A stretch of 64,000 nucleotides of DNA from an uncultured Armatimonadetes bacterium (GCA_963717145.1 OY970325.1:2176001-2240000), one strand, 5' to 3'. Shown: positions 37,995 to 46,321, counted from the stretch's first letter. Notes: generated by a model from the sequence alone, not told the origin. A program made the numbers and translations.

Positions 37995-39696
37995 CGGCCG
38001 GCACGCTCCTTGCGAAGATGAGAATGTCCGGGCTAGCGTAGGACATGTCGTGAGGCAGGTCCCACTGCATCGGGAATCGGACGCCGAACAGCTCGGGCCT
38101 GCGGACGAACTGCTTCTCGATGCGATAGTCGCGCTTGAGAACCGCCATGTACCTCTCATAGTCGGGATCGTGAAGCCGCTTCCGATCCACGTACTCGAAC
38201 TCGGACAAGATGGCGTAGTCGGGCGCGGCCTGCTCGAAGAACTCGGCATTCCACTCCTTCCGTCCATCGACCGCGAAGATGTAGCCGGTCGATTCTTCCG
38301 CAGACGCCAGCCGGTCCATGGGGTCCACGCTCCCGAAGTCCGGGAGCAGTGGAGGCGTGTAGAACCAGGGCGTCGTCGGGAGCCCGATGGAGCTTCCGTC
38401 GGGCGTGTTCGACTTCACCCATGCCGCCGCCTGGTCGCGCGTGTCCTGTCGGACGAACAACGTGTCCAGGGACGCTGCATAAGCCGCTGTGTACCCGATC
38501 GCGAGCGCGGCGACCAAGCCGATGATGACTCCCGCCGCCTTCCCTCTCTCGCCACATTCAACCACAATCCTGGCGCCGAGGAGCAAGATCACCGGCAGCA
38601 GAGGAATGACGTATCGGGCAAAGCGCACCTCCGCGAGTCCGATCAGCACGTAGTATGCGGCGACAAAGACGATCAGCATCCAGTCCCGCGCGCCGGTCTC
38701 AGACATCGGCGTTTGGACCCGCCATGAAAGCAGCAACCGGGCGATCCCATTTCCCGTCGACCGCCTGAAGAGCGCATGGAGCACCCCGAGGATTCCGAGG
38801 ACCAGCAGCGCCGGACCGAGTCCCGGCAGGAGTGAGTGCATCAGGTGATAGAGAAACCCCGATCCCGTCCCGGTGAAGACCAACCCGTGGCCCGTGTCGA
38901 CATGAAGCACCTCGAACCTGAAGTCACGGACGAACGCCTGGGTGTTGATCAGCGCGCCCGGGCATCCGATCAGGAATCCCGCGATGGCGGACCCGATGCC
39001 TGAGAGCAACTTCGGCTGGAATGCCTGAAACATCGGCCTCCCCTGTGCGCTCGCAAGGTGGACTGCAATCAGTGACAGCAGGACGAGCCCGGCGTTGTAC
39101 TTCGTCGCCGCCGCGAAACCGGCGAACAACCCGGCGAGGATGTAGTTCCTCCACCGGCTGTCTTCAGGGATCCGGGCCGCATAGAGGAGCGATAGGACCA
39201 GGAAGAACGTCGCCGGCACATCGACGGCCATGAACTTCGAGTGCATGGCGTGGAGTGGAGCAATCGCCAATAATGCCGCCGCCAGCAGCCCGACACGCCT
39301 GCCGTACATACGCCGTCCGAGCGCGTACAGCAGGTAGACGGTCAGGATACCGAGTGCGACCGCGATGATCCGTCCCGTCATGTAGACCTTGGCGAACTCG
39401 TTGATGTGCGCCATCAGATCGCCGCTGAGGTCGATCGCACCGGCCATCATTGCCACGTTGATGCCGATATTCACGAGGTAGATGTACAGCGAGCCGTAGT
39501 TGTAGAAGCCGGGATCGAACTGCCCGCTGAGGATGTCCACGTTGGTCGCGGCGTTGAGGACGAGAGTCTCGTCGGGGTGGTACGAAAAGAAGTGCGAGAT
39601 GGTCGGCAGTCCCCAATGGAGACCCCAGATACGGAGTCCCGCTGCGACCGCCAGGATGATCAGTATGAATGCGAGCGTGCTACCTGATCTTCTCAA
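37987..39696 (-). CDS. GT-C fold (ArnT/PMT, GT39-like) membrane glycosyltransferase
   Basis: YHPDE motif, many TM helices, AAATKYNAG. Confidence 0.85.
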   Translation of the reverse strand: MRRSGSTLAFILIILAVAAGLRIWGLHWGLPTISHFFSYHPDETLVLNAATNVDILSGQFDPGFYNYGSLYIYLVNIGINVAMMAGAIDLSGDLMAHINEFAKVYMTGRIIAVALGILTVYLLYALGRRMYGRRVGLLAAALLAIAPLHAMHSKFMAVDVPATFFLVLSLLYAARIPEDSRWRNYILAGLFAGFAAATKYNAGLVLLSLIAVHLASAQGRPMFQAFQPKLLSGIGSAIAGFLIGCPGALINTQAFVRDFRFEVLHVDTGHGLVFTGTGSGFLYHLMHSLLPGLGPALLVLGILGVLHALFRRSTGNGIARLLLSWRVQTPMSETGARDWMLIVFVAAYYVLIGLAEVRFARYVIPLLPVILLLGARIVVECGERGKAAGVIIGLVAALAIGYTAAYAASLDTLFVRQDTRDQAAAWVKSNTPDGSSIGLPTTPWFYTPPLLPDFGSVDPMDRLASAEESTGYIFAVDGRKEWNAEFFEQAAPDYAILSEFEYVDRKRLHDPDYERYMAVLKRDYRIEKQFVRRPELFGVRFPMQWDLPHDMSYASPDILIFARSVPAGG

Positions 39697-40249
39697 CCTG
39701 CGCTCCCGGAGATGGCATGCACATATACCTCTGGATCAGCAGGAATATCCCGATCGCGAGCAGGACGTCCCCGATGCTGAGGACCGTGGTAAGTCTCGGA
39801 ATCGCGATGGGAATAATATCCGTCAAGGGTTTCAGCCGTGTTTCCGGCGTCATTATAGCATGACGGGCAGCATCTATGCGCTCGAGGTAGTCCAGCATCC
39901 CGGCAGTCTTCGCCGCCCATCGGCTTACGGGCATCGTTCCGCCGTTCACCGTGAGCGCCAGGAAGTTGAGGAACGAGCCGATGCCCAGGAGTTTCATCTC
40001 GCGAATGTGCAGATTGACGGCGATCACCCCGAGAAGCACAACGTACAGAAGGACGTTCAGAGTGCGCACCACCGTTCGGATGAGATCCTCATTGTGAGTA
40101 CGGTAAGTCAGGATCGTCGCGGCGGCGAAGAATATCAACGGGATGGCGAACACATAGGCGCCGCGGAAGGGGATGCGGCCCAGGTTGGCCAGTCTGCCCT
40201 TCCTGACAAGCCCCACGATAACGGCGAGCAGCGCAGCCTCAACGTTCAT
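39680..40249 (-). CDS. DUF5317-family membrane protein (signal peptidase II-like motifs)
   Basis: GLVRKGRLANL, NFLALTVNGGTMPV, LTDII, SIGDVLL. Confidence 0.75.
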   Translation of the reverse strand: MNVEAALLAVIVGLVRKGRLANLGRIPFRGAYVFAIPLIFFAAATILTYRTHNEDLIRTVVRTLNVLLYVVLLGVIAVNLHIREMKLLGIGSFLNFLALTVNGGTMPVSRWAAKTAGMLDYLERIDAARHAIMTPETRLKPLTDIIPIAIPRLTTVLSIGDVLLAIGIFLLIQRYMCMPSPGAQVEKIR

Positions 40250-40935
40250 GACGCCTCCGCGTCCAATCTGTGACGCTTCTGCAGCACTCTCAGGAACGCC
40301 TCGACGACCTCCGGGTCGAATTTCTCCCCGGCCGATTTCTTGAGTTCGGCTACTGCGCGTTCCTCATCCATCCGTTCGTGATAAGAGCGCTCTGACGTCA
40401 TGGCGTCATATGCCGTGGCGACGGCGAGTATCCGAGCGCCGAGCGGAATCTCGTTTCCCGCCAATCCGTCGGGATAGCCGGATCCATCCCATGCCTCGTG
40501 ATGATGGCGGATGAACGGTGAGATCTCTCTGAGGAAGGCTACCTGCTTGACGATCTCCTCTCCGATGGCCGAGTGCGTCTGTAACTCACTCATCTCTTCG
40601 GAAGTAAGTCTCTCCGGCTTGTTCAGTATGGAGTGAGGCACGCGGATGTTGCCCACGTCCTGAAGGAACGAAGCGTATTCGAGGTCCTTGCCCATCTTCT
40701 TCGGCAGCCCCATATGCCCGGCGATCGCGGCGGCATACTCGGCCACTCGCTCACCATGTCCCACGGCCTTCAGGTCCTTGGTCTCGACCGCCCGCGCGAG
40801 GGTGAGCAGACTCCTGCGATACGCCCGTCCCATCCTACGAGGCAAGTGGACGTAGGAATACAGCGCGGCAACTACGGTTGCGGCTAATGCTATCGCAAAG
40901 GCGGGCGATTTCAGCAGTTCCAGGAAGCTACCCAT
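40246..40935 (-). CDS. Membrane-anchored HD-GYP protein with degenerate HD (QD)
   Basis: One N-terminal TM, GHGERVA, FLQDVGN in place of LLHDIGK, HHEAWDGSGYPDGL. Confidence 0.88.
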   Translation of the reverse strand: MGSFLELLKSPAFAIALAATVVAALYSYVHLPRRMGRAYRRSLLTLARAVETKDLKAVGHGERVAEYAAAIAGHMGLPKKMGKDLEYASFLQDVGNIRVPHSILNKPERLTSEEMSELQTHSAIGEEIVKQVAFLREISPFIRHHHEAWDGSGYPDGLAGNEIPLGARILAVATAYDAMTSERSYHERMDEERAVAELKKSAGEKFDPEVVEAFLRVLQKRHRLDAEAS

Positions 40936-42286
40936 TGTCGCTCTCCTGTTTCGCCGCCATGACGGTGAGGAATGCCTTGACGACGCGTGGATCGAACTGG
41001 GTGCCGGCGCCGTACCGCAGTTGATCTATGCCGTCGTCGATGCTCTTGGGCTTCCTGTCCTTGTTGTATTCGCGCATTTCACCTGTCATCGCATCGAATG
41101 CATCAGCGGCGGCAATGACTGCTGCTTCGATAGGTATCTGCTTCTCCGAGAGCGCATCCGGATATCCCCTGCCATCCGGACGCTCGTGATGCCCCCTGAC
41201 CCATGGCACTATGCACTCCAGGTACTGCATCTGGGTAAGGATCTCCGCTCCGCGCGCCGGATGCTGCCTGATCATCTCCCAGTCGTCGGGGGACAACTGG
41301 CCGCTCTTGTCGAGTACCACCTCGTCGACTCCGACTTTCCCGATGTCGTGAAGCAGGCCGGCATCCTTGATGTACATCAGCGACTGCACGGGAAGCTGCA
41401 TCTGCCTCGCGATCCGCTCAGACAGGTCGGCAACCCGCTCCAGATGACCCTTGGTGTACAGGTGATGGTGCTGAATGTATGTGCCGAGCGCGGTGATCGT
41501 CTCTCGGTACGTGTTCACGTATGTGACGTGCAGGTTCAATGCCTGTCGGGCAACGAAGAACGGGATGATCAGCAGCAGTATCCCCCACGGACCATATCGT
41601 ATGTAGAGCGAGACGAACAGCGTCGCGAACGGCACGCTTACGAACAGGTCGGGGAACGACCACTTGAGGTTACGCTGGGCCGAGACCCTCCAGGGCTCAT
41701 TCTCGCCGAGACTTGTTCCAGTGGCACAAAGCAGTGCGGTTGTGACGCTGTATATCCCGGCCCAGAGCAGCAAGTACAACACGAGTTGGATGTCCGGACC
41801 CGAACTGGTGAGCGCCGGACTGAGGAACGGCCCCCCGGCAACGACGTACACCAGCGAGGCAGCCGCCAGCGCGATCACGTGGTTCGCGTCATTGTAGAGG
41901 ACCAGCGGAGCCAACCATCTGAACGGCGTTCCCCACTGCGTGATGAACGGTGCGATCAGAATGGGAATCGTGCTGACGACGATCGTGGCCGCTGAATGAT
42001 GGCTCAGGAACATGCCCAGGACGACGGGAACGGTGACAGTGACCTCGATGTTGACATCCGGGAGTTTGGTGGGGAAAAGCTCGGTGAGGAAGATGACGCC
42101 CAGGAAGAAAAGCCATTCCCATACGAACGAGCGGTCGCGAAGGAGGAAGTACACCGCGACAAAGAACATCCCCGCTCCGATGACGGAAACCACGCGAGAA
42201 TAGACTGCGAATCTCGACGAAAATCTTCGCAATGGAGAATGCCTTGAACTTATTAGGCCGGAATCGGCAGCAAGCTCTCCAGTCAA
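40928..42286 (-). CDS. Multi-TM sensor HD-GYP cyclic-dinucleotide phosphodiesterase
   Basis: About 7-8 TM N-terminal domain, LLHDIGK, HHERPDGRGYP. Start uncertain. Confidence 0.9.
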   Translation of the reverse strand: MTGELAADSGLISSRHSPLRRFSSRFAVYSRVVSVIGAGMFFVAVYFLLRDRSFVWEWLFFLGVIFLTELFPTKLPDVNIEVTVTVPVVLGMFLSHHSAATIVVSTIPILIAPFITQWGTPFRWLAPLVLYNDANHVIALAAASLVYVVAGGPFLSPALTSSGPDIQLVLYLLLWAGIYSVTTALLCATGTSLGENEPWRVSAQRNLKWSFPDLFVSVPFATLFVSLYIRYGPWGILLLIIPFFVARQALNLHVTYVNTYRETITALGTYIQHHHLYTKGHLERVADLSERIARQMQLPVQSLMYIKDAGLLHDIGKVGVDEVVLDKSGQLSPDDWEMIRQHPARGAEILTQMQYLECIVPWVRGHHERPDGRGYPDALSEKQIPIEAAVIAAADAFDAMTGEMREYNKDRKPKSIDDGIDQLRYGAGTQFDPRVVKAFLTVMAAKQESDNG

Positions 42287-42322
42287 AACCGGAGAGCGGC
42301 CGTCCTAGGTCGCTCTAGGCGC

Positions 42323-42409
42323 CTATGGGGGCGGCCAGTACTTCGGGAACGCACCTGAGCTGAGTACTAACGCAGCCAGGGCTAGCAGCACTTTGACTAA
42401 GGTCTTCAT
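42323..42409 (-). CDS. 28-aa putative signalling-peptide precursor MKTLVKVLLALAALVLSSGAFPKYWPPP
   Basis: Translated by hand. SD gaaagggg 9 nt before ATG, basic n-region, hydrophobic h-region, short aromatic/Pro tail, TAG stop. Confidence 0.75.
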   Translation of the reverse strand: MKTLVKVLLALAALVLSSGAFPKYWPPP

Positions 42410-42557
42410 TTAGGTCAACCCCTTTCGTGTGGTGAGAATAATGCCCGTCGTCGCTAAAAGACAGACAATTTCACCGCTCCGCTCGGGTTGTTTGGATTCG
42501 CTTGTGTTTCGCGGATGCGACCCCTCAGCTGCTGCCGATCGCCGGCCTAAATTGTGT

Positions 42558-43214
42558 TTACTCTTCGATCGCCATACCGAGTCGTCGGTTAATGGCGTCT
42601 AGTGTAGCATTCACCACCGCTTTCCATAAATCCTGCTTTACGATTGCTGTGCCGGCAAGATAGTCCTCGCCCCTCGCAGTTATCATGTTCACGAGCACGA
42701 CCACAATGCTTCTACCGGACAGGGTTACCGAGGTATCCAGGTCCTCCAGGACGAGCATTCCGTCGGATCCCTGGCAGTTTTCGAGAGCGCGCAGAGTGGC
42801 GGTTGCAATCAGGCGCAACTGGTTATGGGACGAGCTGTGACCGGCTGCGCTGCCCGTGTAGATGTCCTCACCACGGATCAGTCGGACCATGGCTTCGGCT
42901 TTGGTTCCGTTGAGGGAGATGTGCACGTCCGAAAACTTGAGCCGCGAATCGCTGAACCGAAACTGCTTGCCGTTCTGCGTCTGAGCGACGCTGACGATCT
43001 TGTGGTCCAGCTCGAAGCCGTACTGGGCCATGAGCGCGGATTCGACATCCCGCACGACCTGCTTGGGGACTCTGCCCCCATCCGCCAGTACGTGCAGCTC
43101 TTCAAGCTCTCCGTCCTTGCCGGCTACGGCACACACGGAGATGACGCCTCTGAGAGAGCGGATGACCGCCTCAACCTCCATGGCTGATACTCGTCTGGGT
43201 GCTTCCATGTCCAT
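42558..43214 (-). CDS. Conserved hypothetical cytoplasmic protein (HVLA...PKQxxRDxES motif)
   Basis: ELHVLADGGRVPKQVVRDVES. The C-terminal AVVNATLDAINRRL resembles the end of a LeuA-type regulatory domain. Confidence 0.7.
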   Translation of the reverse strand: MDMEAPRRVSAMEVEAVIRSLRGVISVCAVAGKDGELEELHVLADGGRVPKQVVRDVESALMAQYGFELDHKIVSVAQTQNGKQFRFSDSRLKFSDVHISLNGTKAEAMVRLIRGEDIYTGSAAGHSSSHNQLRLIATATLRALENCQGSDGMLVLEDLDTSVTLSGRSIVVVLVNMITARGEDYLAGTAIVKQDLWKAVVNATLDAINRRLGMAIEE

Positions 43215-43222
43215 TCCTCTCG

Positions 43223-45250
43223 CTAACGGAACGATGCCGCCAGGTTCTTGACCAGGTAATCCCTGATCTGACCCATGCGTTCGTCTACCTCTTCGTCTCG
43301 AAGAGTCCGCTCCCGCGAACGGAAGATGATGCTGAAGGCCAAGCTCTTTTGTCCGGCAGGAAGAGGCTGGCCCTGGTAGTAATCGAACAGGCTGGCGCTT
43401 TCAAGTAAATCGCCGGCTCCGTTGACGATCGCCTCGTGTACACACTGGTATGGAAGGCTATCCGGCACCACGACAGCGAGGTCTCTCGAACTCGCCGGGT
43501 ACCGTGAAATAGCTCTGTATTTCTTATCGGCGCGAGTCGCGTCCATCAAGAAATTGATATTCAGTTCGAACGCAGATACTCTTGAGGCTAAGTCCAGCGA
43601 TTTGGTCCGGGCGGCGCTGATCTCGCCTATGACACCAAGCTCGGTATCTCCCAAGACTATCTTTGCACCCCTTGAGGGATGAAAACCGGGTATCGAGTCG
43701 GAGCGGAGGGTCACATCCGTGATGCCGATCCGCTCGAGGAGCGCCTCCAGGATGCCCTTGAGGAGGAAGAAGTCCGCCTGCAGGGAACCCTTGTCGACGT
43801 TCCATGCCTTGTCCCACGCGTTGCCCGTGATGGCGACGGCGACGTTGCCGTTCTCGATGATGGTTCCTTGGTCGTCGGGCTGAAACACCTGCCCGATCTC
43901 GAAGACTCCGAGGTCTCTGACGCCTCTTCCTGCGTTATATGATAATACCGCCAAAAGGCTTGGTGTTAAACCGCTTCTTAGGTAACCAAGCTCCTCGCTG
44001 AGAGAATTCCTCAGCGGAGTCTGGGCCGAATGCTCGTCGGGCGGTGTCATTGTGCTCGTGACGACTTCCTGCAGGCCGCATGAAATCAGCAGCTCGGTGA
44101 TCTCTCGGTCGAGTCTGACGTGATCGCTGTCGTGTCCCTGCATGCTCTCACCACATGGGAGAGTCTCGGGTATGTTCTCGTAGCCGTGTATGCGACCGAC
44201 TTCCTCGATGAGGTCCACCTCGCGCTCGATGTCGGCACGGAAGGTCGGAACCTGCACCCTGATCTGACCGTTGCGGCTGACTTCCATCCCGAGCCGGGAG
44301 AGGTAATCCGCCACCTGCTCGTCACTGAGATCCATGCCCAGCAGCATCCTGGTGCGCTCCGGTCGGATGGTGAGCGCGATGGGCTCGATCTTCTTAGGAT
44401 AGACGTCGATGACGCCGCGAGCGATCGTGCCGCCTCCCGTCTCCTGGATGAGCTGGGACACCCGGTCGAGTGCCTGGATCGTGAGGTTCGGATCCACACC
44501 CCGCTCGAATCGGTATGAGGCCTCGGTGGACATCCCCAGTTTGCGGGCGGTGCGACGGATCGAGAGCCGGTTGAAGTGAGCCGACTCGATCAGGACATTC
44601 TTCGTGCGGGAATTGACTTCGGAATCGGAGCCACCCATGACCCCGGCGATCGCGACCGCATGTCTCGGGTCGGCGATGACGAGCATATCGGGGTCGAGTG
44701 TCCGCTCCTCGCCGTCGATCGTGGTGATCTTCTCGCCGGCCGCCGCCTGTCTCACGATGATGTGATGGTCGGCCAGGAGATCGGAGTCGAAGGCGTGAAG
44801 CGGCTGGCCGAGTTCCAGGAGGACATAGTTGGTGGCGTCGACCACATTGTTGATCGGGCGCATCCCGGCGGCCAGGAGTCTCTTCTGCATCCATCCAGGC
44901 GAATCGGTGATGGTGGTGCCCGTGATGACTCGCGCGGAGTACCTGGGGCAGTTCACGGGGCTGGTGATCTCGACCTTCGCGAGGCTCTCGGCAGCCGGTT
45001 CACCCTCGACGAGCGATATCTTCGGCTCGCCCAGAGGGATGTTCAGGAGCGCCGATGTTTCCCGTGCGACGCCGACCATGGAAAGCAGGTCCGATCGGTT
45101 AGGCGTCACGTAGGTGACGAAGACGGATTCTCCTTCCAGTTGGCGTATCTCTTCGACTTCCAGCCCTGCCATGGTAAGGCGATCGGCAAGCGCTTGGTCA
45201 GCAAGCGTGAAATCGCTATATTCTCTTAGCCATGCCACAGGCACGAGCAT
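43223..45250 (-). CDS. pheT: Phenylalanine-tRNA ligase beta subunit (short form)
   Basis: TPNRSDLLS, RPINNVVDATNY, GQPLHAFD, C-terminal FDX-ACB domain. Confidence 0.96.
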   Translation of the reverse strand: MLVPVAWLREYSDFTLADQALADRLTMAGLEVEEIRQLEGESVFVTYVTPNRSDLLSMVGVARETSALLNIPLGEPKISLVEGEPAAESLAKVEITSPVNCPRYSARVITGTTITDSPGWMQKRLLAAGMRPINNVVDATNYVLLELGQPLHAFDSDLLADHHIIVRQAAAGEKITTIDGEERTLDPDMLVIADPRHAVAIAGVMGGSDSEVNSRTKNVLIESAHFNRLSIRRTARKLGMSTEASYRFERGVDPNLTIQALDRVSQLIQETGGGTIARGVIDVYPKKIEPIALTIRPERTRMLLGMDLSDEQVADYLSRLGMEVSRNGQIRVQVPTFRADIEREVDLIEEVGRIHGYENIPETLPCGESMQGHDSDHVRLDREITELLISCGLQEVVTSTMTPPDEHSAQTPLRNSLSEELGYLRSGLTPSLLAVLSYNAGRGVRDLGVFEIGQVFQPDDQGTIIENGNVAVAITGNAWDKAWNVDKGSLQADFFLLKGILEALLERIGITDVTLRSDSIPGFHPSRGAKIVLGDTELGVIGEISAARTKSLDLASRVSAFELNINFLMDATRADKKYRAISRYPASSRDLAVVVPDSLPYQCVHEAIVNGAGDLLESASLFDYYQGQPLPAGQKSLAFSIIFRSRERTLRDEEVDERMGQIRDYLVKNLAASFR

Positions 45251-45271: not shown

Positions 45272-46321
45272 CTAGAACTGTCTAAGGAAACGAACGTCGT
45301 TCTCAAGGAACAGACGCAGATCGTCGATCGCGTACCGAAGCATCGGCATTCGTTCGATGCCGAGGCCGAACGCGAAGCCTGTGTACTTCTCCGAATCATA
45401 GCCGAACCGCTCCAGTATGTTCGGATGGATCAAACCGGCTCCGCCGAGTTCCAACCAGCCGCTCGACTTGCAGATGGCACAACCTGCGCCCCTGCACATC
45501 ACGCAGCTTATGGCGACCTCGGCTCCCGGCTCGACGAACGGGAAGAAGTCCGGGCGGAACCGCACTCGAGTGTCGTCGCCGAACATCAACCGCGCGAAGT
45601 TGGCCAGGGTGCCCTTCAGGTCGGCCATGCTGATGCCTTCGTCGACTGTGAAGCAGTCGACTTGGTGGAACGTATGCGAATGCGTTGCGTCCACTGCCTC
45701 GTATCGGAAGCAGCGGCCAACGGTGGCGATCCTCAACGGCGGCTGGCGCGTCTCGAAGACACGGCCCTGAAGCGCCGTAGTCTGCGTCCTGAGCAGAAGG
45801 TCGTCGGTTACGTAGAACGACATCTGCTCGTCCATAGCGGGATGGTCTTCCGGGTAGTTGAGCGCTTCGAAGTTGTAGCGATACTGCTCCAACTCCGGGC
45901 TCTCCATGATCTCGTAGCCCAGCCCGACGAAGATCTCTTTGACGCGGTCGATCGTGGTCGTAAGGAGGTGCCGCCTGCCGGTTCTGAACAACCGGCCGGG
46001 CAGAGTCACGTCGACCGCCTCCTGCGTGAGGCGGCGGCCGTCCTCCTGTGCCTGGATGTCCTCGATCTTGGTCTCGAGCCTTGCCTCCAGGTGGTTCTTG
46101 AGTTCGTTTGTGAGGCGGCCGAACTCGGGCCTCAGATCGCGGGGTAACTCTCCTACGGATCGCGAGAGTTCTGTTACCTTGCCCTTGCGCCCGAGATACT
46201 TGACGTCGACGTCTTTCAGATCGGTGGAGGAAGCGGCCTGGTCGATGGCCTGCTCCACCTCAATCCGCAGGGCGTCCAGTTGCTCCTGCACCGATCCAAT
46301 ATCTTGTAACCTCTCAGGCAT
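45272..46321 (-). CDS. pheS: Phenylalanine-tRNA ligase alpha subunit
   Basis: DATHSHTFHQ, FFPFVEPG, GFAFGLGIER. Confidence 0.97.
   Translation of the reverse strand: MPERLQDIGSVQEQLDALRIEVEQAIDQAASSTDLKDVDVKYLGRKGKVTELSRSVGELPRDLRPEFGRLTNELKNHLEARLETKIEDIQAQEDGRRLTQEAVDVTLPGRLFRTGRRHLLTTTIDRVKEIFVGLGYEIMESPELEQYRYNFEALNYPEDHPAMDEQMSFYVTDDLLLRTQTTALQGRVFETRQPPLRIATVGRCFRYEAVDATHSHTFHQVDCFTVDEGISMADLKGTLANFARLMFGDDTRVRFRPDFFPFVEPGAEVAISCVMCRGAGCAICKSSGWLELGGAGLIHPNILERFGYDSEKYTGFAFGLGIERMPMLRYAIDDLRLFLENDVRFLRQF

Follow-up and report, generated by a model that had tools for sequence, protein, structure and literature searches.

A conserved, unannotated micro-ORF enclosed by a structured RNA beside membrane HD-GYP genes: a candidate membrane microprotein of Armatimonadota and other phyla

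A stretch of 64,000 nucleotides from an uncultured Armatimonadetes bacterium (GCA_963717145.1, OY970325.1:2176001-2240000; the whole of this analysed stretch is called the window below) carries on its minus strand an unannotated open reading frame (ORF) of 28 codons, placed between the gene for a protein that we call p218 and the gene for a membrane protein with an HD-GYP domain. This micro-ORF is a genuine protein-coding gene, the product of which is under purifying selection, and it is surrounded by a covarying, structured RNA in which the Shine-Dalgarno (SD) sequence is masked. We put at about evens the reading in which the product is a single-pass membrane microprotein that acts with the HD-GYP and DUF5317 membrane proteins encoded beside it, its translation being gated by the RNA leader.

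The micro-ORF is a conserved coding sequence

The ORF and its ribosome-binding site are placed as follows.

42323..42409, minus strand: micro-ORF of 28 codons and TAG (ATG at 42409-42407, TAG at 42325-42323), with the product MKTLVKVLLALAALVLSSGAFPKYWPPP
42419..42426, minus strand: Shine-Dalgarno sequence gaaagggg, 9 nt (ttgacctaa) before the ATG, within the conserved block CGAAAGGGGTTGA

Around the start and on to the stop the minus strand reads ...cgaaaggggttgacctaaATG AAG ACC ... CCC CCA TAG. An earlier note on this DNA had described the ATG, the TAG, the gaaagggg at 9 nt and the 28-residue product, and all of these are exact in the minus-strand sequence and its translation. The note had also suggested looking in related genomes for conservation of the frame and for a bias towards synonymous substitution, and both were found. 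With p218 as the query, 41 related genomes gave matches in 33 and full-length orthologues in 28. At all 28 orthologue loci, which come from five families of the class, a homologous ORF of 27-30 residues lies on the same strand, 65-269 nt downstream of the p218 orthologue, with its start codon (ATG, in one case GTG) and an SD sequence; the block CGAAAGGGGTTGA that holds the SD is itself kept in nearly all of them. The two paralogue loci that were fetched (L029 and L030) are without the micro-ORF.

The consensus for the class is M-[KS]-[TR]-L-x-K-V-L-x-[AG]-L-A-x-L-x-x-[ST]-x-G-A-x-x-x-x-W-P-P-[PR]. Entropy by codon position is 22.3, 14.3 and 33.6 for the first, second and third positions, respectively, and the Nei-Gojobori ratio of non-synonymous to synonymous differences per site (pN/pS) is 0.08-0.52, with pS up to 0.88, over all 28 pairs among the eight family-f1 sequences. 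Within the family, conservation is highest at the residue equivalent to A20 (at least 90 % in alignment A6). The hydrophobic core is conserved to the same degree as the tail and at the level of the neighbouring proteins. The peptides end in WPPP in families f1, f3 and a few others, in WPPR in f4, in WPKWP in f2 and in ...FKW before the stop elsewhere.

The peptide and its relatives beyond the class

By inspection the peptide divides into MKTLVK, VLLALAALVL and SSGA, that is, a basic n-region, a hydrophobic h-region and a c-region of small residues, with a small residue at -3 and Ala at -1 as in a Sec signal peptide; the earlier note was thus right about this textbook layout. It can equally be described as two basic residues (K2 and K6), a hydrophobic helix at about residues 4-21, the S-S-G-A cluster and an aromatic, basic and proline-rich end. 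Hydropathy in 15-residue windows rises to 2.36, a value of membrane character, and two Lys or Arg residues stand among the first eight in 73 of 91 distinct peptides. No family was matched by the peptide in a Pfam search, and an NCBIfam search returned only a chance-level 11.9 bits against a cut-off of 31. The resemblance of LSSGA to a lipobox that lacks Cys, also remarked upon earlier, holds as well. Since the peptide has no Cys there is no lipobox, and a lipoprotein was rejected for want of a conserved Cys at +1, where the window has S; a Cys occupies that position only in families f2 and f3, with S in f1 and A in f4.

At least 578 relatives of p218 are present in contigs taken from one genome per species, and the best 80 loci were examined. 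Their record titles assign them to Armatimonadota (Fimbriimonadales, Chthonomonadia and Capsulimonadaceae), to many Bacillota (Desulfosporosinus, Thermincola, Symbiobacterium, Syntrophomonadaceae, Alkaliphilus, Geosporobacter and others), to Ca. Sumerlaeota and to a few other groups. A same-strand ORF just downstream of p218 matched the peptide profile at 49 of the 80 (37 at E<=0.1), an unbiased scan for short hydrophobic ORFs added 24 loci, and two others, L098 (MTKMLSYMLSLVAVVTAQSAVPWEWPPP and stop) and the truncated L108, came to light through the RNA model that is treated further on. The micro-ORF is thereby seen in about 75 of these 80 further loci; one of the five left without, L061, has no downstream sequence.

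Peptides from Bacillota and Sumerlaeota are mostly of 24-29 residues and stop 4-5 residues past the conserved G-A (for example MSKLFKVITVLVTLVLAGGASYRI and MKTIAKVVMALVALVLAGGANWKW, each followed by the stop; other short tails read ...LVLAGGASYRI and ...AGGANWKW), those from Chthonomonadia have 39 residues, and those from Fimbriimonadales have 43-47 (MKRWLILMAMVVAMMSVASAKRVYYPHRWDDP...), with a tail of 23-27. Constraint on the protein extends to this wider set, a Desulfosporosinus-type clade of Bacillota giving a pN/pS of 0.30 summed over 120 pairs (16 ORFs of 24 residues). As judged from these sequences, the conserved core is a basic N-terminus, one predicted hydrophobic helix, a cluster of small residues ending in Ala, and an aromatic or basic end. 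Because most homologues end 4-5 residues after G-A, the WPPP tail is a clade-specific addition, which weakens both the idea of an eight-residue pheromone and that of stalling at polyproline.

The family has escaped annotation. Searched with a profile, 1.84 billion representative proteins yielded 15 matches at E<=1e-3. The 13 of these that were fetched belong to the family and have 27-73 residues, some with over-extended N-termini, and the other two (1662 and 133 residues) were multi-stretch hits. A collection of 15 billion predicted proteins holds three family peptides, none of them named, and lacks both the peptide exactly as it stands in the window and six versions encoded in public records of Bacillota genomes; the 24-25-residue versions from named genome records of Desulfosporosinus and Symbiobacterium are among those missing.

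The structured RNA that encloses the ORF

The elements of the RNA unit, all on the minus strand, are these.

42253..42550, minus strand: whole structured RNA unit of about 298 nt, enclosing the micro-ORF (from folding and covariation)
42531..42550, minus strand: 5' strand of helix P1, TTAGGCCGG cg ATCGGCAGC, beginning a few nt past the p218 stop
42253..42271, minus strand: 3' strand of P1, GCTGCCGAT t CCGGCCTAA, beginning 52 nt beyond the ORF stop codon
42485..42490, minus strand: anti-SD strand of helix P2, CAACCC, pairing with GGGTTG at 42416-42421
42416..42421, minus strand: SD-side strand of P2, GGGTTG, overlapping the SD
42474..42484, minus strand: tandem motif GAGCGGAGCGG, in which GAGCG-R-AGC (42484-42476) is invariant in alignments A7 and A8
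42437..42470, minus strand: hairpin P3 with loop UUUUAGCGAC, in which AGCG (42452-42455) is invariant; present in the minimum free energy fold
42274..42297, minus strand: 10-bp hairpin that follows the ORF stop and precedes the 3' strand of P1, in the fold of the window

Alignments of the spacer between p218 and the ORF show blocks that are far better conserved than the coding neighbours, and the same blocks appear when the ORF with its downstream flank, or the leader alone, is aligned. The block CGAAAGGGGTTGA is conserved beyond what an SD needs because P2 pairs CAACCC with GGGUUG. The unit of the window folds at -139.2 kcal/mol, compared with -102.3 +/- 5.6 for shuffled sequences (z -6.6; reached by 0 of 100), with the same helices; a further helix, P2b, reads GGUGA/UCACC in the window. 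RNAalifold, given a plain MAFFT alignment, recovered P1, P3 and part of P2 without guidance; within the ORF it predicted no covarying helix apart from two invariant G-C pairs. When P1, P2 and P3 are taken together, 89.3 % of 617 cells hold standard pairs, as against 77.5 +/- 0.8 % for column shuffles (0 of 500 reach the observed value) and 27-47 % when the partners are slid along one another. Changes on both sides were seen in 20 of 25 pairs overall (10 of 12 in P1, and all six tested in P3).

P1, with 95.3 % of its cells paired, has been rewritten from clade to clade with its complementarity kept (TTGGGCCGACGG/CCGTCGGCCCAA, TGAGCCAACGGCG/CGCCGTTGGCTCA, CAGGCAAGGCAAGC/GCTTGCCTTGCCTG and TGACCGACAGTGTA/TACACTGTCGGTCA), and P2 shows a compensating pair, ACCTTC/GAAGGT, in family f2. 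Over 99 loci the best ungapped complementary segment of the flanks had a median score of 35.5, compared with 22.5 for non-cognate flanks; only 62 of the 99 exceed the 95th percentile of this non-cognate control, which is inflated because relatives share helix sequence. The leaders carry 2-5 copies of RAGCG(R), those beyond the two invariant motifs lying upstream in many clades, and GAGCG-R-AGC is found in Bacillota leaders too. At the place of the 10-bp hairpin, L002, L003 and L008 have a hairpin of different sequence. Two minor features of the flanks were also seen: a short conserved block, (C)CTAGGACGG, lies at 42299-42310 between the ORF stop and this hairpin (family f1; L002 and L004-L006) and pairs locally in the fold of the window; and at L013:2164-2500 repeats of the CCCATGA type on both sides extend P1 to about 37 bp, an unusually long duplex for the flanks of an mRNA.

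The element in the window matched no family in Rfam 15 (E<=10), nor did the element at 12 loci of several phyla (E<=1). A covariance model, R1, was built from Armatimonadota leaders of the window's class alone; it is mostly a sequence model, because the automatic structure retained only four base pairs. At 50 of the remaining 80 loci R1 matched the leader right up to the start of the micro-ORF; 28 of these matches are at E<=0.01, among them records of Thermoanaerobacterales, Syntrophomonadaceae and Sumerlaeota. A search of its own genome found the element only once (E 4e-15; the second-best match is at 0.07), and the element tracks p218, occurring in 28 of 28 genomes with p218 and in 0 of 5 without; in these five relatives (completeness 96-100 %) nothing better than E 0.04 was found.

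Metatranscriptome contigs that lie wholly inside the unit were found in three runs from three studies, one per run and with 0-1 differences; they span 42318-42538 (222 nt), 42285-42521 (240 nt) and 42329-42542 (214 nt). Two of them end, at 42538 and 42542, inside the 5' strand of P1 and without loose ends, which gives a weak hint of an RNA end there, such as a cut in P1. By comparison, a DNA run from soil spans all 1.4 kb, with an identity of about 96 %, and continues past the ends of the RNA contigs. The three RNA runs held no contig on p218 or the HD-GYP gene save a 33-nt piece in X5, and no ranking of abundance follows from this.

Gene neighbourhood

The genes around the micro-ORF all lie on the same strand.

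45272-46321, minus strand: pheS
43223-45250, minus strand: pheT
42558..43214, minus strand: p218, the upstream neighbour of the micro-ORF, with no hydrophobic segment and no Pfam or NCBIfam family
40928..42232, minus strand: membrane HD-GYP protein (HD_5), with about seven hydrophobic segments by simple hydropathy
40246..40935, minus strand: second HD-GYP (HD_5) protein
39680..40249, minus strand: DUF5317 membrane protein, with three hydrophobic segments

After DUF5317 comes a gene for a PMT_2 glycosyltransferase. The stable module consists of p218, the RNA with its micro-ORF, the membrane HD-GYP gene (followed in Armatimonadota by the second HD-GYP gene) and DUF5317. Downstream of the peptide, 24 of the 28 class loci have a membrane HD-GYP gene, two of the four misses being truncated loci, and an HD-GYP gene lies downstream in 69 of the 80 other loci, with DUF5317 next in 37 of the 80. 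In most loci the stop of the peptide and the HD-GYP start are about 10-140 nt apart. In the window the longest HD-GYP ORF begins with TTG at 42286, inside the 3' hairpin of the RNA unit, where the orthologues have no in-frame start; from the conserved N-terminus M-R-R-x-S-K-A-F the start is likely to be the TTG at 42232 instead. A promoter scan gave no sigma-70-like site, and its sole terminator-like site lies inside the HD-GYP gene.

The presence of pheST upstream suggested a leader peptide that senses Phe. This was rejected: the peptide has no runs of Phe, and pheT, which precedes p218 in all 28 class loci, stands next to it in no more than 7 of the other 80.

A proposed membrane microprotein with a gated message

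The peptide most likely resides in the cytoplasmic membrane with its N-terminus inside and its C-terminus outside, a placement to which the hydropathy, the distribution of charge, the conserved core and the tails, too short in most clades to be a product, all point. There it may serve as a subunit or regulator of the protein with seven transmembrane (TM) segments and an HD-GYP phosphodiesterase-type domain, of the DUF5317 protein, or of both; the adjacency of the HD-GYP gene and the hydropathy of the peptide are those of small membrane-protein regulators, which have a single TM segment and a polytopic neighbour. A complex predicted for the peptide, the TM domain of the HD-GYP protein and DUF5317 scored 0.34, compared with 0.29 for a control, and weighs on neither side of the question of binding. 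P1, which closes the mRNA unit of about 300 nt, may be a processing or stability stem; the anti-SD helix P2 hides the ribosome-binding site within the leader, and the single-stranded GAGCG-R-AGC and AGCG are candidate sites for a ligand or protein, p218 being the obvious candidate binder. Given the anti-SD helix and these candidate motifs, translation of the microprotein would be gated. Both the partner of the peptide and the ligand or protein that acts on the leader are inferred from this arrangement.

Several points weigh against this reading. Translation, insertion into the membrane and the choice of partner are predictions; a TM helix would usually have a longer hydrophobic run than the 15 or so uncharged residues present here (18 with K6 included); and the peptide might be cleaved by signal peptidase I, which recognises an n/h/c layout of this kind, with its small residue at -3 and its Ala at -1. 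On the side of the RNA, R1 did not detect the leaders of Fimbriimonadales, though these carry P1 and GAGCG repeats, and some Clostridia mask the SD with a strand found on the 3' side of the tandem motif (GATATAGCC / GGCTATATC); masking of the SD thus recurs, but with P2 built differently, and the logic of gating may differ between clades. The metatranscriptome contigs, moreover, reveal neither strand nor transcription as such. We consider rather unlikely a broader proposal, in which the unit would be a hitherto undescribed riboregulatory module common to several phyla: the cytoplasmic p218, with its fold like that of the amino-acid-binding regulatory domain of LeuA and its label of nucleic-acid-binding protein in some sources, or else a small ligand, would bind the RAGCG motifs and switch the anti-SD helix, thereby setting the level of a microprotein of 24-47 residues, which in turn would switch a complex of DUF5317 and the seven-TM HD-GYP protein acting as a cyclic di-GMP (c-di-GMP) phosphodiesterase.

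The signal-peptide layout invites a different explanation, which we regard as unlikely: that the product is an exported pre-peptide, in which residues 1-20 are a Sec signal, signal peptidase I cuts after G-A, and the released FPKYWPPP is sensed by the seven-TM HD-GYP protein. The canonical n/h/c layout, the receptor-like membrane protein encoded next door and the position of the best-conserved residue of alignment A6 at the putative -1 are what it would predict. So is the form of the Fimbriimonadales homologues, which resemble MKRWLILMAMVVAMMSVASA, a cut, and KRVYYPHRWDDP..., with a conserved tail of 23-27 residues. The earlier note had put forward FPKYWPPP as a pheromone with a protective PPP end; as put, this is not supported by the family, since most Bacillota and Sumerlaeota homologues have only those 4-5 residues beyond G-A, and the PPP end is lineage-specific, being replaced by WPPR in f4, by WPKWP in f2 and by the long tail in Fimbriimonadales. 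The variable tail that it expected is borne out only within the window's clade, where positions 21-24, directly after the putative cut, are the most variable; across phyla the tail keeps an aromatic-basic-aromatic character and shows no diversification. The hydrophobic core, conserved like the neighbouring proteins, is also as conserved as the tail, which would be unusual for a mere export signal, and no exporter, Rgg, RRNPP or Opp genes are present in the module or flank the ORF.

The RNA suggests a comparison of another kind, with a hydrophobic peptide of the type I toxin sort that is silenced by a fold-back mRNA, through 5'-3' pairing and masking of the SD, and activated by RNA processing. 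A small hydrophobic peptide, a long-range 5'-3' helix, an anti-SD helix over the SD and short contigs from RNA libraries that hold only this unit agree with such an arrangement. What makes it very unlikely is the manner of inheritance: a single genomic copy where a patchy and multi-copy distribution would be looked for, an unchanging location, with p218 on one side and HD-GYP on the other, at some 100 loci from several phyla, purifying selection that reaches far back in time, and a presence that follows p218 (28 of 28 with it, none of five without).

We think it highly improbable that the peptide has no role of its own and that its translation, by stalling at WPPP and the stop, remodels the RNA in cis and so controls the HD-GYP gene downstream. 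The ORF does lie within structured RNA directly upstream of that gene, with the hairpin and the 3' strand of P1 separating its stop codon from the next start, and a WPPP-stop sequence is expected to be slow to translate and to terminate, as is known for polyproline and for Pro before a stop. Yet selection acts on the amino acid sequence along its whole length, and there is no conserved C-terminal arrest motif such as SecM, MifM and VemP have, PPP being missing in f4, f2 and most Bacillota. The gap that separates the stop from P1 or from the following gene varies from 1 to 95 nt across loci. Most members have 24-30 residues in total, and sensing of force in the manner of SecM or MifM is implausible because a nascent chain of 24-28 residues would still be inside the exit tunnel. 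Finally, we give next to no credence to a purely non-coding RNA with an incidental ORF: the RNA does fold in a strongly conserved way, with invariant motifs that lie beyond the ORF, but variation at third positions and saturated synonymous change leave the peptide preserved, start, SD and frame are kept in some 100 loci, with length kept within each clade, and the ORF itself has no predicted covarying helix save the two invariant G-C pairs.

Relation to known systems

Small single-pass partners of larger membrane proteins, often missed by annotation, are well known; MgrB with PhoQ, AcrZ with AcrB, KdpF with KdpABC, CydX with CydAB, and YohP are examples. The peptide described here shares with them a length of 24-50 residues, one hydrophobic helix, a basic N-terminus and a polytopic neighbour gene. 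It differs from those of the MgrB, AcrZ and KdpF kind in having no sequence relation to them, in its putative partner (the seven-TM HD-GYP protein or DUF5317) and in being encoded inside a structured RNA.

In the type I toxin mRNAs of hok/Sok and aapA1/IsoA1, translation is inhibited by fold-back, an upstream anti-SD masking the SD. The likeness lies in an ORF for a hydrophobic peptide, a long-distance 5'-3' helix and a masked SD, whereas the present element is single-copy, vertically conserved across phyla and in fixed synteny with signalling genes. No antitoxin RNA is known for this element, for which no search for an antisense RNA was made, and the GAGCG and AGCG motifs are not known to feature in the hok and aapA1 mRNAs. 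Short precursors of exported pheromones, such as Phr and SHP/ComS, of which SHP peptides have about 20-25 residues, are alike in n/h/c architecture, in the small residue at -3 and Ala at -1 and, for SHP, in total length. They differ in that here the mature part would have only 4-8 residues, similar across phyla, the core is conserved and no RRNPP or Rgg receptor or exporter lies nearby. Leaders with repeated protein-binding motifs, such as the (G/U)AG repeats for TRAP and the GGA loops for CsrA, and riboswitch platforms that sequester the SD are resembled by the present leader with its RAGCG(R) repeats, one of which is in a hairpin loop and one beside the SD-sequestering helix; neither the motif nor the architecture seen here matches an Rfam 15 family.

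In the literature outside subscription journals and supplements we found nothing on DUF5317 or on an HD-GYP-linked RNA motif of this sort. Where that literature treats HD-GYP together with small membrane proteins, the portions available hold nothing relevant, and where it treats HD-GYP together with candidate structured RNAs, the portions available concern the GEMM riboswitch. The microprotein and the structured leader are therefore of known kinds, while this family, this RNA and their association with HD-GYP and DUF5317 appear to be undescribed. Microproteins of fewer than 30 residues are systematically missed, and here is a family that spans phyla under purifying selection, tied to an RNA that has no entry in Rfam and to three protein families without an assigned role: p218, the seven-TM HD-GYP protein and DUF5317. 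It offers a concrete handle on the control of a widespread class of membrane HD-GYP proteins, together with a new candidate RNA motif, the invariant nucleotides of which suit it to screening for ligands or proteins; experiments are feasible because several carriers are cultured species. If the proposal is true, a layer of control by RNA and microprotein would act on second-messenger signalling from Armatimonadota to Bacillota.

The neighbouring protein p218 and minor observations

In its sources p218 is annotated as a 'hypothetical protein' or, in a few JGI records, as a 'predicted nucleic-acid-binding protein'; the domain PF08502 (LeuA_dimer) is present in one homologue. No meaningful match to p218 was found among PDB sequences. 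The protein was modelled with AlphaFold2 on an alignment of 23 sequences, with a confidence (pLDDT) of 85.6, and residues 93-215 of the model, which run beta-beta-beta-alpha twice, matched LeuA (1sr9, E 6e-6) and citramalate synthase (3f6h, TMt 0.61) in Foldseek, with weaker matches to dsRNA-binding domains. The C-terminal domain of the modelled protein thus has the fold of the regulatory domain of LeuA and citramalate synthase, from which p218 differs in having no catalytic domain and an extra N-terminal alpha/beta domain. The 218-residue form is not in the protein collection, which holds a 207-residue form starting at M12; the orthologue alignments favour a start at about M3, and because these two disagree the start of p218 is uncertain.

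A paralogue of 460 residues, encoded at another place in the genome (G000:C1:726787-727125; L111:1279-2661, minus strand), combines CBS, CBS and GGDEF domains with a C-terminal domain like that of p218, and similar proteins, with 440-510 residues, occur in most relatives. The p218-like domain on the GGDEF paralogue is a second link of that domain to c-di-GMP signalling. About 1-2 kb upstream of p218, a model of the cspA thermoregulator gave matches in several Bacillota and Sumerlaeota loci (L074:1144-1541, L093:1175-1601, L060:124-471, L063:605-979 and L085:1262-1578), only that in L074 being above the gathering score; in those groups the module may thus often have a cold-shock gene nearby. 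In an Anaerosolibacter record a full-length raiA RNA (174 bits; L078:396-632) lies about 2 kb upstream of the module.

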